The notes under the pieces: model-generated
What the model was told of the DNA's origin: nothing
Database searches by the model: none
The model's input: the letters and a program-made list of their open reading frames with translations, nothing else
IMG/VR virus record: IMGVR_UViG_2740892214_000001
Source of the DNA: a virus
Lineage: Duplodnaviria; Heunggongvirae; Uroviricota; Caudoviricetes
Reading direction: 5' to 3' (one strand)
Length of the DNA: 20,518 nucleotides
Translations under genes and position numbers: made by a program
In this document: in pieces, positions 17,743 through 20,461 of the stretch
Layout of the letters: the number at the start of each line of letters is the position of its first letter
Numbering within the stretch: position 1 is the stretch's first letter

Positions 17743-18078
17743 TTACTCCTTAGAGCCACCAAACTTGTTACCGATTACTCGCATTGCAGCCCCACGAATA
17801 GCATCGACACCGATCAGCCCCACGCCGCCACCAATGGCAACAGAAAGTGATTTAGGCCATCCGACATACTCAAGAGCGGATGCAAAGGTCAGCGTCAGAG
17901 CGCCACAGAGCAAAATCTCGAGCGTTTTTCGCTTCCAGCCACCACCACCGCCAAAATAGGCGATGCGCAAACCAGCCATAACGATCGACATAATCACTGC
18001 ACCCAGCGGCGTGTCTCCACGCCACCAGCTCTGAAACAACTCCAGCCAGTCCGGCCAGGTATTTGGGTTATGAGGCAT
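17743..18078 (-). CDS. Class I holin, 3 predicted TMDs (not lambda S-like in sequence)
   Basis: Start trimmed to ATG 18076..18078 (MPHNPNTW...) because the track ORF N-terminal extension contains the terminator hairpin. Three hydrophobic segments; immediately upstream of R with a 3-nt gap. Confidence 0.6.
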   Translation of the reverse strand: MPHNPNTWPDWLELFQSWWRGDTPLGAVIMSIVMAGLRIAYFGGGGGWKRKTLEILLCGALTLTFASALEYVGWPKSLSVAIGGGVGLIGVDAIRGAAMRVIGNKFGGSKE

Positions 18079-18121
18079 TTCGTCATCTCTCACCTCGCGA
18101 TATTTGCGGGTGCAGTGTTGG

Positions 18122-18147
18122 AAATAAAAAGGCCACGCAACGTGGCC
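18122..18147 (-). terminator. Intrinsic terminator between the methyltransferase and the holin (minus strand); possible tR'-like element
   Basis: Perfect 7-bp stem GGCCACG-UUG-CGUGGCC followed on the minus strand by UUUUUAUUU; begins 8 nt after the methyltransferase stop. Confidence 0.6.
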
Positions 18148-18154
18148 ACCAGAA

Positions 18155-19207
18155 TTATTTCCCCACCAGTTCACTTACCTCTTTCACCGTCTGATTAAAC
18201 CGCTCTGACTCAAGTTCAACACCTAACGCCCGACGCCCCAGCGCCATTGCTGCTTTTATTGTGGAACCGGATCCCATAAAGAAATCAGCAACCAGATCAC
18301 CAGGGCGACTACTGGCATTGATTATTTGCCGGAGCATATCCGCCGGTTTCTCGCACGGATGTTTACCCGGGTAGAACTGAACGGGTTTATGCGTCCAGAC
18401 ATCGGTATAAGGCACGGAGACTGATACGGAGAAATAGCGCCGGAGAGATTTAAACTCATCCAGCAATTCAGAATATTTGCGATTCAGTGAATCATAAGAT
18501 GCCACCAGCTGGTGGTGTGGTTGTTCCAGTTGTTGTTCCTGAAACTTCTCTGCCGCTATACGGGAAAACAGTGCCTGTAACTTCCGATAGTCAGCCTCAT
18601 TCGGCAACTGCCACTGACTGGCACCAAACCAGTGGGAAACCATATTTTTCTTACCTGTGGCTTCGGCAATTTGTTTTGCCGTTATACCCAGTTCGGCACG
18701 AGCATCCCTGAAATACGATATCAGCGGTGCCATTATGTGCTGTTTGAGTTCCCTTTCTTTTGCTGCATAGCCGTCACTTTTGCCGCGATATGGCCCCTGG
18801 TAATGTTCAGCAAACAGAACGCGCTCTGTGGCAGGAAAATATGCGCGCAGACTTTCTTTATTACACCCATTCCAACGTCCGGACGGCTTCGCCCAGATGA
18901 TATGGTTAAGCACGTTGAAACGTTCACGCATCATGATCTCAATATCAGATGCCAGGCGATGCCCACAGAACAGATAAAGGCTTCCGGCAGGTTTTAACAC
19001 CCGCCAGAACTGGGCCAGACAGTGGTCCAGCCACTTAAGGTAATCTTCGTCCCCTTTCCACTGATTGTCCCAACCGTTGGGTTTCACCTTGAAGTACGGC
19101 GGATCGGTAACAATCAGGTCAATGGAATCATCAGGCAGGGACTGAATAAAATGCAGGCAATCAGCGTTGATTAAATCAACACTGTTTATTTTTACAGTAT
19201 TTTTCAT
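18155..19207 (-). CDS. DNA amino-methyltransferase, beta-class (N6-adenine or N4-cytosine), orphan
   Basis: 350 aa; DPPY motif (IVTDPPYF) near the N-terminus and AdoMet-binding FxGxG (DFFMGSGST) near the C-terminus; no adjacent endonuclease-like ORF; weak SD. Confidence 0.85.
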   Translation of the reverse strand: MKNTVKINSVDLINADCLHFIQSLPDDSIDLIVTDPPYFKVKPNGWDNQWKGDEDYLKWLDHCLAQFWRVLKPAGSLYLFCGHRLASDIEIMMRERFNVLNHIIWAKPSGRWNGCNKESLRAYFPATERVLFAEHYQGPYRGKSDGYAAKERELKQHIMAPLISYFRDARAELGITAKQIAEATGKKNMVSHWFGASQWQLPNEADYRKLQALFSRIAAEKFQEQQLEQPHHQLVASYDSLNRKYSELLDEFKSLRRYFSVSVSVPYTDVWTHKPVQFYPGKHPCEKPADMLRQIINASSRPGDLVADFFMGSGSTIKAAMALGRRALGVELESERFNQTVKEVSELVGK

Positions 19208-19357
19208 GGATCAGTAAGCGTAACTCTGGTAGGCTCACTCTGCTTTTGCGCTAAAGCAGTGGGCCGTGGTTCGCTTGTGACCAGTAAGCATGAGCGAATG
19301 GCTGGCAGGTGCTACCAACACCCACCAGCCGCCCATTTTCACAGCAGGAAACCGCCA

Positions 19358-19585
19358 TTACTGGCAGCGTCTGAATTTATTCCCGTACCCGCCGTTATCC
19401 TTCGCCAGCCCCGCCAGAACTAACTGAGTCAGTATTAACTGGCACCGGGCTTCGCTTACTCCGGTAGTTCTCGTCATCATGCGTGGCGTTACCCACTTGT
19501 CAGCAGGTAAGAAATGAAGGACTGCGGCGGCGGTTTCTGTCATATCTTGCTGTTTTAGCATGTCTTTTTCCCTTCTGGTTAACAT
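19358..19585 (-). CDS. Small hypothetical protein (67-75 aa) with HTH-like segment; possible DNA-binding regulator
   Basis: Segment TPRMMTRTTGVSEARCQLILTQLVLAGL looks like a helix-turn-helix; start ambiguous (19585, or 19561 with AAGGGA SD); lies upstream of the methyltransferase. Confidence 0.4.
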   Translation of the reverse strand: MLTRREKDMLKQQDMTETAAAVLHFLPADKWVTPRMMTRTTGVSEARCQLILTQLVLAGLAKDNGGYGNKFRRCQ

Positions 19586-19683
19586 GACATACCAATAACT
19601 CTTGTCTAAAAAGCCAGCAAGATAAAAAGTCAGTATTCACGACCACCAGCGTGTTTACTGTACTGCACCAAGTTTACAGGTAC

Positions 19684-19705
19684 AAAAAACCCGCTCAGTG
19701 GCGGG
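19684..19705 (-). terminator. Intrinsic terminator downstream of the 207-aa cargo ORF (minus strand)
   Basis: Minus strand CCCGC-CACUGA-GCGGG followed by UUUUUUGU; about 130 nt after the ORF stop at 19838. Confidence 0.55.
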
Positions 19706-19837
19706 TTTAAGTTGTGTGGCGAAGTAACCACTCTTAACACACTAATAGCATTTTTGTTATAACACAAGTAGCTCATTCAGTATTTTTAGAATCTTGACTT
19801 TCTTAAGCACGGCGAACTCTGAATACCAAACATAAAA

Positions 19838-20461
19838 TCAATTATCTTCCAGGCCGGATGCTATCAACGAAAGCCTCTCAAAAAACGCTGTAGCAGCCTT
19901 GTCCAAAGTTGAATAAGTACTGTATTCTCCGTGTTCGGGACCAACCACTACCCATGGTCGTCTTTTTGGGATTCGGGATTTCTCAGAAATCACTGTTCCA
20001 GATATACCAATATCAATTGTTACACCTGTTATTATTTTCTCTTCATCTCTTTCCCTGAACTCAATTGCCATAAATGCCGTTTTTTTTCGTTTCCCGTTTT
20101 TAAAAAAATCAAATAAAGCAAAGCGATGCTCATTAAAATCAACACCCCATCGTCCTTCAGGATAAAGGGCATGAAAGTTGTCATTTACGCTCTGCATCGT
20201 CTCATAAGCTTTAACTTCTAAATCTCCATAGTGCATAGATACCGCGCAGGAGTTACTGGGTAACTGTATTTTCCCAAGATTGAAAACCTTTACTGCTCCA
20301 GAACTATGGCATCTTGCCCGCAACTTATCCCCATTTATACTAATCGGAGAAATATTCCTTAATGTTCCGGGCTGGCTCCCTCCTAAGTAAACGACTGTTA
20401 AAGATTGCTTATTTTCAATTGCATCAACTAATACATGCTCTACACTGAGAGATCCCCTCAT
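19838..20461 (-). CDS. Hypothetical protein (207 aa), orphan cargo ORF in a low-GC island
   Basis: Uninterrupted 207-codon ORF with GGGG SD-like element 5 nt upstream of the ATG; local G+C clearly lower than the rest of the window (about 38% in a counted 60-nt sample vs roughly 60% in the tape measure gene); no recognisable motif; own downstream terminator. Confidence 0.6.
   Translation of the reverse strand: MRGSLSVEHVLVDAIENKQSLTVVYLGGSQPGTLRNISPISINGDKLRARCHSSGAVKVFNLGKIQLPSNSCAVSMHYGDLEVKAYETMQSVNDNFHALYPEGRWGVDFNEHRFALFDFFKNGKRKKTAFMAIEFRERDEEKIITGVTIDIGISGTVISEKSRIPKRRPWVVVGPEHGEYSTYSTLDKAATAFFERLSLIASGLEDN

Follow-up and report, generated by a model that had tools for sequence, protein, structure and literature searches.

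The window analysed here, a stretch of 20,518 nucleotides (nt) from the Caudoviricetes virus record IMGVR_UViG_2740892214_000001, is the late region of a lambdoid prophage. Its minus strand carries a DNA methyltransferase gene preceded by a small open reading frame (ORF), and a spacer of 150 nt (19208-19357) lies between the two. A first-pass annotation of the sequence had placed an ORF of 67-75 amino acids (aa) with a helix-turn-helix (HTH)-like segment directly upstream of the methyltransferase and a 7-bp inverted repeat, CTGCTTT-N6-AAAGCAG, in the spacer, and had compared the arrangement with the small controllers of methyltransferase genes in restriction-modification (R-M) systems. Indeed, the ORF is present at 19358-19585 (minus strand; 75 aa, or 67 aa from 19561), and the repeat at 19240-19259 was both read directly and found by a repeat search. 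When the window was aligned with loci from Salmonella, Plesiomonas and Erwinia, the spacer proved to be better conserved than both flanking coding sequences (CDSs). The three elements of the module are:

18155-19207, minus strand: DNA methyltransferase of 350 aa, beta-class N6-adenine, M.EcoGII family (from the ORF, Pfam, PADLOC and identity to M.EcoGII)
19208-19342, minus strand: conserved structured leader RNA of about 135 nt (from conservation, covariation and a covariance model (CM), whose match at 19202-19342 includes the first 6 nt of the CDS)
19358-19585, minus strand: gene of a small winged-helix protein, a 75-aa ORF with a likely product of 67 aa (from the ORF, homologues, structure prediction and codon bias)

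The methyltransferase and its conserved leader RNA

The methyltransferase has the beta-class order of motifs described in PMC5778455 and PMC11551740, an N-terminal DPPY (DPPYF, residues 35-39) and a C-terminal FxGxG (FMGSGST, residues 310-316) within a protein of about 350 aa. In the architecture given there, a helical target-recognition domain lies between the two motifs. It matched Pfam N6_N4_Mtase (E 1.3e-42, the match being interrupted by an insertion) and PADLOC MTase_II (E 1.6e-152). The comparison with M.EcoGII, whose sequence was machine-read from Supplementary Table S1 of PMC11551740 with one or two residues possibly misread, gave 283 identical residues out of 349 (81%) from end to end. 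Judged by its sequence, the window enzyme is of the M.EcoGII type, and sequence-non-specific adenine methylation is predicted for this variant. M.EcoGII itself comes from a prophage of E. coli O104:H4 and methylates adenine non-specifically (PMC5778455); it is not expressed in the lysogen, its constitutive expression harms the cell (PMC5778455, PMC12707154), and it accepts RNA as well as DNA as a substrate (PMC11551740, PMC5778455). Two of our loci (L010 and L091), in which the N-terminus of the methyltransferase is identical to that of M.EcoGII, carry this leader too, with the same small ORF before it.

No GGAG, AGGA or GAGG, i.e., no Shine-Dalgarno sequence, occurs in the 20 nt that precede the methyltransferase ATG (19207), CAGAGUUACGCUUACUGAUCC. 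The first-pass annotation had described this sequence as weak; the poor start region is confirmed, and the Shine-Dalgarno itself is missing altogether.

A pattern derived from the spacer retrieved more than 120 viral contigs, and a search of species-representative genomes with the methyltransferase gave 80 loci, from Escherichia to Yersinia, Serratia, Ewingella, Lonsdalea, Photorhabdus and Xenorhabdus. One of these 80 species-level loci is cut off at the start of the gene, and the leader is present in 77 of the remaining 79. A leader peptide in the spacer (MGGWWVL...) was considered and rejected: the distance from its ATG to the TCAC block is 53, 54, 55 or 56 nt, which covers all three frames, and some versions have in-frame stops. 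The scan for sigma-70 promoters called none in the spacer, its sole call on this strand lying inside the small ORF and within chance expectation. No Rfam 15 family matched 19208-19342 (E <= 10) or the leaders of loci L176, L188, L185 and L006 (E <= 1); four genera were covered.

The helices of the leader were defined by RNAalifold and manual inspection and were designated P1, P1a, P2 and P3:

19260-19335, minus strand: three-way junction of fold A, in which P1 pairs UGGGC (19331-19335) with GCCCA (19260-19264) around P1a and P2
19300-19330, minus strand: P1a, a long hairpin, GGCUGGUGGGUG / CACCUGCCAGCC (from the repeat search and covariation)
19293-19297 and 19271-19275, minus strand: P2, UCGCU paired with AGCGA; its pair 51/75 is CG:34, AU:10, UA:9 and UG:5
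19240-19259, minus strand: P3, the inverted repeat, in the mRNA CUGCUUU-AGCGCA-AAAGCAG

In a MAFFT alignment of 42 representatives, 85.6% of the cells were paired vs 24-49% when the partners were slid, and 14 pairs had changed on both sides vs 6.8 ± 1.4 in shuffles. The covariance model R1, built from this alignment, had a single match in the window (153.5 bits, E 4.9e-39) and recovered all 61 long-form loci with E values of 1e-18 to 1e-38. In the CM alignment of 59 distinct leaders, 17 of the 29 pairs were double-changed, which none of 500 shuffles reached (9.1 ± 1.5). The most variable and most strongly covarying helix is P1a: 11 of its 12 pairs had changed on both sides, wobbles were frequent (UG:22, GU:10), and its arms are wholly different in Yersinia, Ewingella, Lonsdalea and Serratia with the pairing retained. 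P1 was paired in 100% of cases and had one double change (A-U in L147). The core of P3, GCUUU/AAAGC, is kept in 58 of the 59 distinct leaders, with double changes at three pairs (UA:54 GC:5; UA:25 CG:7 UG:4; CG:8 UA:5), and the outer two pairs of the 7-bp stem are often unpaired and not conserved family-wide. By our estimate, a perfect 7-bp inverted repeat with a loop of 3-8 nt is expected about 0.05 times in 150 nt by chance, which by itself does not make the repeat remarkable; it is considered real because it is conserved across leaders. Three unpaired blocks, GGUCACA, ACCAAGGCCCA and GUGAGCCUAUCA, are near-invariant. The core of the leader, with compensatory changes in its helices, persists in Yersinia, Ewingella, Serratia and Lonsdalea, where methyltransferase identity is only 64-66%.

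To summarize, the leader is a conserved, covarying RNA on the sense strand of the methyltransferase. Since G-U pairs are frequent in it and such wobbles have no meaning in duplex DNA, the structure is one of RNA and not a duplex-DNA operator. The inverted repeat, which had been regarded as a possible operator, is helix P3 of this RNA of about 135 nt.

Two alternative folds of the leader

The UGGGC, GCCCA and AAGCG segments each have a second conserved partner. In fold A, the P1/P1a/P2 junction is followed by P3, and the final ~35 nt with the AUG remain single-stranded. The alternative, fold B', is the minimum free energy fold of the window leader. Here P1a is extended by the pairing of AUGGGC with GCUCAU, P3 by that of GGCCCA with UGAGCC (19232-19238), and a further helix covers positions -15 to -3 of the AUG and encloses the extended P3:

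19209-19282, minus strand: sequestering helix of fold B', in which GGUCA (19278-19282) and AAGCG (19272-19276) pair with CGCUU (19216-19220) and UGAUC (19209-19213)

Fold B' as a whole was paired in 87.1% of cells vs 29-43% for slid partners, and 20 of its pairs were double-changed. Among its parts, P4 (AAGCG/CGCUU) had double changes at four of its five pairs, GGUCA:UGAUC was 95% paired, and the P3 extension (P3x) 96%. In the UGAUC segment, the five paired columns had a standard pair in 53-59 of 59 leaders. Note that the single AAGCG segment covaries with both of its partners, in P2 and in P4. When the 59 distinct leaders were folded under constraint, the difference dG(A)-dG(B') was +2.2 ± 4.8 kcal/mol, with 27 of the 59 within 3 kcal/mol. 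We conclude that folds A and B' are mutually exclusive, near-isoenergetic and both conserved. The leader combines a structured domain with a mutually exclusive pairing over an expression signal, the combination sought in an RNA switch, and from its sequence it has the anatomy of a translational switch and may well work as one.

A Dam site, GATC, occupies 19209-19212 (minus strand), i.e., positions -6 to -3 of the methyltransferase start, inside the nearly invariant UGAUC segment. We read it as part of the sequestering helix.

The leaders of Photorhabdus and Xenorhabdus (L179-L206) are shorter, with about 85-105 nt before the methyltransferase, and CM R1 does not match them. They have a P1a-like hairpin and no three-way junction, and in the four that were folded a second helix pairs the ribosome-binding region. 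The methyltransferase of these loci apparently starts at GUG.

The small winged-helix gene and its association with the leader

With 76 ORFs of at least 70 aa in the window, the small ORF alone is unremarkable against chance. It is a real coding gene because it has conserved homologues and its substitutions are biased to the third codon position: positions 1/2/3 had 159/115/579 substitutions (subfamily B) and 184/91/318 (Xenorhabdus type). A word-seeded search yielded 89 homologues, and an exhaustive profile search of 1.84 billion representatives yielded 90 cluster representatives. The true homologues are all small, stand-alone proteins and occur across the Enterobacterales and only there. Long matches in the profile search were tandem winged-helix or leucine-rich repeat (LRR) proteins, and a fusion of the small protein to the methyltransferase was therefore rejected. 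The likely start is the second in-frame ATG at 19561, from which the 67-aa product is read. An AAGGG Shine-Dalgarno sequence lies 9-13 nt before it, it is conserved in every subfamily (MLKQQDMTE), and the annotations of phages mEp460 and Ayreon use it.

The AlphaFold2 (AF2) model of the protein (pLDDT, the predicted value of a local distance difference test, 84.7, predicted template modelling score (pTM) 0.70) has the topology H1-S1-H2-H3-S2-wing-S3, with helices at residues 4-25, 34-41 and 45-57 and strands at 61-63 and 71-73. According to this model the protein is a winged helix with the topology of the MarR/TrmB/IclR-like superfamily, so that the HTH-like segment reported earlier is predicted to belong to a nucleic-acid-binding fold. 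The Foldseek neighbours were winged helices throughout, i.e., Zalpha (1qbj, root-mean-square deviation 1.2 Å), the SelB domain that binds selenocysteine insertion sequence (SECIS) RNA (2pjp), and the N-domains of IclR, TrmB and MarR, in weak and generic matches (E >= 3e-3). By sequence there was no solved homologue; the fold led only to generic winged helices. Pfam gave weak matches to MarR_2, TrmB and DnaD_N (E 0.06-0.2, below the family cut-offs), the protein matched PHROG 331 (function unknown; E 3e-26), and nothing was found in NCBIfam or PADLOC. At least three subfamilies share a near-invariant helix, RCQL(I/L)LTQ, and the protein has one invariant Cys (C48) and usually a C-terminal one. 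Four mosaic proteins (P0050, P0051, P0053 and P0056) consist of the N-half of one subfamily and the C-half of another, joined at RCQLILTQL. This sequence seems to be a recombination point, and part of the invariance of the helix may lie at the nucleotide level.

Two conserved features flank the gene:

19585-19620, minus strand: upstream motif TTGCTG-N12-AGAGTTAY-N3-4-GTRTGTCA, conserved 5' of the small gene, single copy in the window
19351-19368, minus strand: hairpin P0, GCUGCCA-GUAA-UGGCGGU followed by UUUCCU, terminator-like, immediately 5' of the leader

The upstream motif occurs in 159 of 207 sequences, its spacing being exactly 12 in 159 of 162 instances, and it lies only 5' of the winged-helix gene, from E. 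coli to Xenorhabdus. None of the 24 genome loci that lack the small gene has it; the one exception is an opposite-strand match in L201. The sigma-70 consensus scan did not call it. A hairpin within the motif was rejected, since the spacer positions do not pair, which makes it a motif of the DNA type. It is a candidate for the promoter (perhaps an activator-dependent one) or the operator of the small gene.

The stems of P0 covary (GCUGCC/GGCGG, GCCUCC/GGGGGC, CCUUC/GAAGG, GCCCC/GGGGU), and the U-rich tract that follows varies in quality. A hairpin always lies directly 5' of the leader, and where the small gene is missing it takes the form of a canonical terminator. The loop of P0 holds the stop codon of the small ORF (UAA, 19358-19360), so translation of this ORF could affect hairpin formation and, with it, termination before the leader.

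The association of the three elements depends on how the loci were selected. Selection by the leader motif gave 128 viral loci, and in 111 of them the small gene lies directly upstream of the methyltransferase and in the same orientation. Leader and methyltransferase follow in all 75 assessable loci selected by the small protein, for which the search of viral contigs gave only near-identical copies, all close to the window, with distant lineages barely covered. Of the 80 genome loci selected by the methyltransferase, 55 have the small gene; 24 (~30%) have no small protein within 3 kb, and unrelated cargo genes lie upstream there. The conservation of the leader was no different in 22 loci without the small gene from that in loci with it. 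Therefore, we concluded that the leader belongs to the methyltransferase and that the small gene is an extra that often comes with them, together with its own motif. Because about 30% of the loci lack the gene and keep the leader equally conserved, the small protein is not an obligatory controller, and it appears to be needed for the persistence of neither the leader nor the methyltransferase.

Two unusual groups of loci were also noted. In four viral contigs (L023, L062, L088 and L107) the leader is kept only through P1a, and an unrelated 237-aa ORF (MVVVCSVIMVCSPINIF...) then replaces the methyltransferase; these contigs have a recombination junction inside the leader. A degraded module lies in a prophage remnant of Erwinia sp. 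P7711 (L005, 5001-6029): its methyltransferase is cut short at 225 aa and the tail preceding the AUG has diverged, with small gene and leader still intact.

Proposed expression control in the late region

The minus-strand order in the window is a 207-aa cargo ORF, a terminator, the small ORF, the 150-nt spacer, the methyltransferase, and holin/endolysin/Rz. Near-identical DNA is found in phages mEp460, Ayreon and cdtI and in a series of Stx2c phages, where the cassette lies between the region of the antiterminator Q and the lysis genes (annotation of mEp460 and Ayreon). The full order, Q - cargo - small ORF - methyltransferase - holin - endolysin - Rz, follows from the phage annotations and the gene calls of loci L003 and L006. 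About 21% of complete E. coli genomes (1122/5426), Stx2c and cdt phages included, carry the module, which also occurs across the Enterobacterales. The annotators of Ayreon placed terminators 5' of the small ORF and 3' of the methyltransferase. In the window, the corresponding features and the cargo gene are:

19838-20461, minus strand: cargo ORF of 207 aa in a variable slot between Q and the module, PHROG 8498 (function unknown; E 7e-124)
19681-19711, minus strand: rho-independent terminator of the upstream cargo gene, AAACCCGC-CACUGA-GCGGGUUU followed by UUUGU (from the repeat search; equivalent annotated in Ayreon)
18131-18147, minus strand: terminator-like hairpin directly after the methyltransferase stop, GGCCACGTTGCGTGGCC and TTTTTATTTC (Ayreon has an annotated terminator there)

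The reading we favour, with a probability of roughly 0.55, is that the region controls the expression of a late cargo module and that the leader gates translation of the methyltransferase by a logic like that of com-mom. The terminators on both sides would restrict transcription to Q-modified polymerase. Translation initiation would be closed by default, and a start without a Shine-Dalgarno sequence would stay closed unless the leader refolds. In this way only Q-antiterminated late transcripts would yield the toxic enzyme, in a limited amount, and the DNA of the progeny would thereby become methylated just before packaging. The winged-helix protein would most likely be an accessory nucleic-acid-binding regulator that acts on its own upstream motif or on the mRNA.

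Several points weigh against this reading. Related sequences can beat shuffles without any structure, and P1 has only its single double change. In GGUCA:UGAUC and AUGGGC:GCUCAU only one side varies, so what supports them is conservation, with no compensatory change. Fold A was the one to which the CM alignment was fitted; in the most divergent members the tail aligns poorly, and P4 keeps only one or two pairs in Ewingella, Yersinia and Lonsdalea. The proposed translational role is deduced from geometry and conservation, and the long perfect hairpin P1a could equally be an RNase III site. The accessory role of the winged-helix protein is one that we infer.

In logic, Mu com-mom is, by analogy, the closest known system. 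In phage Mu, Com binds a hairpin beside a translation-inhibiting structure of the mom mRNA (PMC6483171), and in Mu-like prophages com-like genes precede non-specific adenine methyltransferases (hin1523/nma1821) (PMC3299994). The common features would be a small ORF just upstream, on the same transcript, of a late, host-toxic, anti-restriction adenine-modifying enzyme, and an RNA structure that sequesters the start region of the enzyme gene (here fold B' at -15 to -3, as predicted) with a hairpin nearby. However, the module differs from com-mom in several respects. The small protein is a predicted winged helix with two conserved Cys, whereas Com is a four-Cys zinc finger, and Pfam Mu-like_Com had no match in the small protein at E <= 1. 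The leader is much larger (~135 nt, with a three-way junction and two global folds), the ORF does not overlap the methyltransferase gene but ends 150 nt before it, and the phage is lambdoid and Q-dependent, with the small gene missing in ~30% of loci.

A more specific proposal, which we put forward tentatively and hold to be possible at best, sees in the ~135-nt element a new class of cis-regulatory RNA that is bistable, dedicated to M.EcoGII-type methyltransferases and flipped by a specific effector. Candidates for this effector are the winged-helix protein as an RNA-binding analogue of Com that is not a zinc finger, the methyltransferase itself, or a metabolite.

The strongest of the competing explanations, although we consider it doubtful, gives the small protein the full role of Com: it would bind the leader RNA or P0, shift the leader from fold B' to fold A and thereby activate translation of the methyltransferase. 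The architecture is that of com-mom and com-hin1523, the leader has two alternative folds to be shifted, the recognition helix RCQL(I/L)LTQ is near-invariant across subfamilies, and the structural neighbours include winged helices that bind RNA or Z-form nucleic acid, i.e., SelB-SECIS (2pjp) and Zalpha (1qbj). However, these structural matches are the weak, generic ones mentioned above, the invariance of the helix may partly reflect nucleotide-level recombination at the mosaic joint, and the motif with strict co-occurrence is found not in the leader but upstream of the gene of the protein itself. An obligatory Com-like role is disfavoured because the small protein is dispensable (it is absent from 24 of the 80 species-level loci) and the leader is unchanged without the small gene.

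The same independence from the small gene would suit a self-contained sensor, either a riboswitch (e.g., for S-adenosylmethionine or S-adenosylhomocysteine (SAM/SAH)) or an operator by which the methyltransferase controls itself, with the small protein unrelated or self-regulating. Such a sensor we regard as unlikely. The three-way junction, the highly conserved junction and loop nucleotides and the alternative fold as an expression platform are consistent with it, as is the fact that the methyltransferase is the only protein always encoded beside the leader; M.EcoGII, moreover, acts on RNA too (PMC11551740, PMC5778455). On the other hand, the leader has no similarity to the SAM/SAH or any other riboswitch class of Rfam at E <= 10, any ligand is hypothetical, and a metabolite sensor would be of no obvious use in a late lytic gene. 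The likeness to translational riboswitches that occlude the ribosome-binding site lies in the multi-helix 5' domain, the alternative pairing that captures the initiation region, and the similar energies of the folds. In contrast to these, the element has neither an Rfam match nor a known ligand, and it lies inside a polycistronic late transcript after a terminator.

An improbable reading takes the leader as a processing or stability element, in which the P1a/P1x hairpin of ~12-25 bp is an RNase III site or a 5' stabiliser and the alternative pairings are incidental. P1a keeps its shape and not its sequence, as expected of a substrate recognised by structure, and the position right after a terminator within a polycistronic late transcript would be suitable. 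However, this explanation leaves both the near-invariant unpaired blocks (GGUCACA, ACCAAGGCCCA and GUGAGCCUAUCA) and the covariation of P2 and P4 with their common AAGCG segment unaccounted for.

The controller suggested by the first-pass annotation, a protein like the C proteins of R-M systems that binds 19240-19259 as a DNA operator and sets transcription of the methyltransferase, is very improbable. C proteins such as C.PvuII, C.AhdI and C.Esp1396I are all-helical HTH proteins of the Xre type with about 70-100 aa, which chiefly control the endonuclease and bind C-boxes, tandem dyad sites that precede the C gene itself. The resemblance lies in a small nucleic-acid-binding protein encoded upstream of, and in most loci co-oriented with, a DNA-modification gene, and in the presumed timing of a dangerous activity; a winged-helix fold would also be compatible with DNA binding. 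However, the predicted fold is not Xre/HTH_3, and HTH_3 had no Pfam match in the small protein at E <= 1. As had been noted earlier, there is no endonuclease: none was found in the window or in any of the contexts inspected, where the neighbours are cargo ORFs, holin, endolysin and Rz. No C-box-like dyad precedes the small gene, the repeat search giving only weak matches of 79-89% there. The spacer has no promoter-like site, the supposed operator is an RNA helix within a larger structure rich in G-U wobbles, and it is conserved, together with the whole leader, equally well in the 22 loci without the small gene. What stands of the suggestion is a conserved gene with a predicted nucleic-acid-binding fold and a leader that, as a structured and conserved RNA, looks regulatory; the protein is neither a C protein nor obligatory. 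Neither of the two outcomes that were to refute the suggestion, a lack of conservation of the ORF or of a DNA-binding fold in its product, was seen. Finally, the notion that the spacer has no function and is conserved only through recent horizontal spread of the cassette can practically be set aside: many E. coli copies are 99-100% identical, but the leader core with its compensatory changes persists at 64-66% methyltransferase identity, and the covariation contradicts it.

The methyltransferase family is already known, and M.EcoGII is a widely used reagent in chromatin and RNA footprinting and in methylation tools. The orphan prophage methyltransferases M.EcoGII and M.EcoGI of E. coli O104:H4 share with the window the enzyme family, the domain order and the prophage site by the lysis genes; the published work covers the enzyme. 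In the text of the M.EcoGII paper the word 'upstream' does not appear and 'promoter' stands for vector promoters only, so that the leader and the small gene fall outside present knowledge. Neither is mentioned in the open-access text of the M.EcoGII papers, an R-M review and the papers on small RNAs (sRNAs) of the Q-holin region, and, to judge from Rfam, Pfam, PHROGs, RefSeq annotation and the literature that could be searched, both the leader RNA and the small protein family are undescribed. Our analysis offers a sizeable covarying leader outside Rfam, a concrete two-fold gating model and a co-travelling winged-helix family. If the switch is real, it would extend the com-mom principle to lambdoid phages with unrelated parts, and it might provide a compact and tight translational off-switch for toxic genes. 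If the RNA is flipped by an effector, it would be a second, independently evolved safety catch of the 'small protein plus RNA switch' kind for a toxic phage DNA-modification enzyme.

Some observations on the neighbouring genes remain. The 207-aa cargo ORF had weak matches to the WYL domain (Pfam E 0.009; PADLOC WYL E 0.002), and mEp460 has an unrelated 139-aa ORF in its place. On the plus strand, 19580-19716 weakly matched the Salmonella sRNA STnc130 of Rfam (30.1 bits vs a gathering score of 55, E 0.024); this match is carried mostly by the terminator hairpin, which lies on the opposite strand, and is probably due to chance. The listed 143-aa holin ORF (17743-18174, minus strand) has a 5' extension that contains the hairpin after the methyltransferase, and its match to Pfam Phage_holin_3_1 begins at residue 35; the true holin start is probably further downstream than the listed one.

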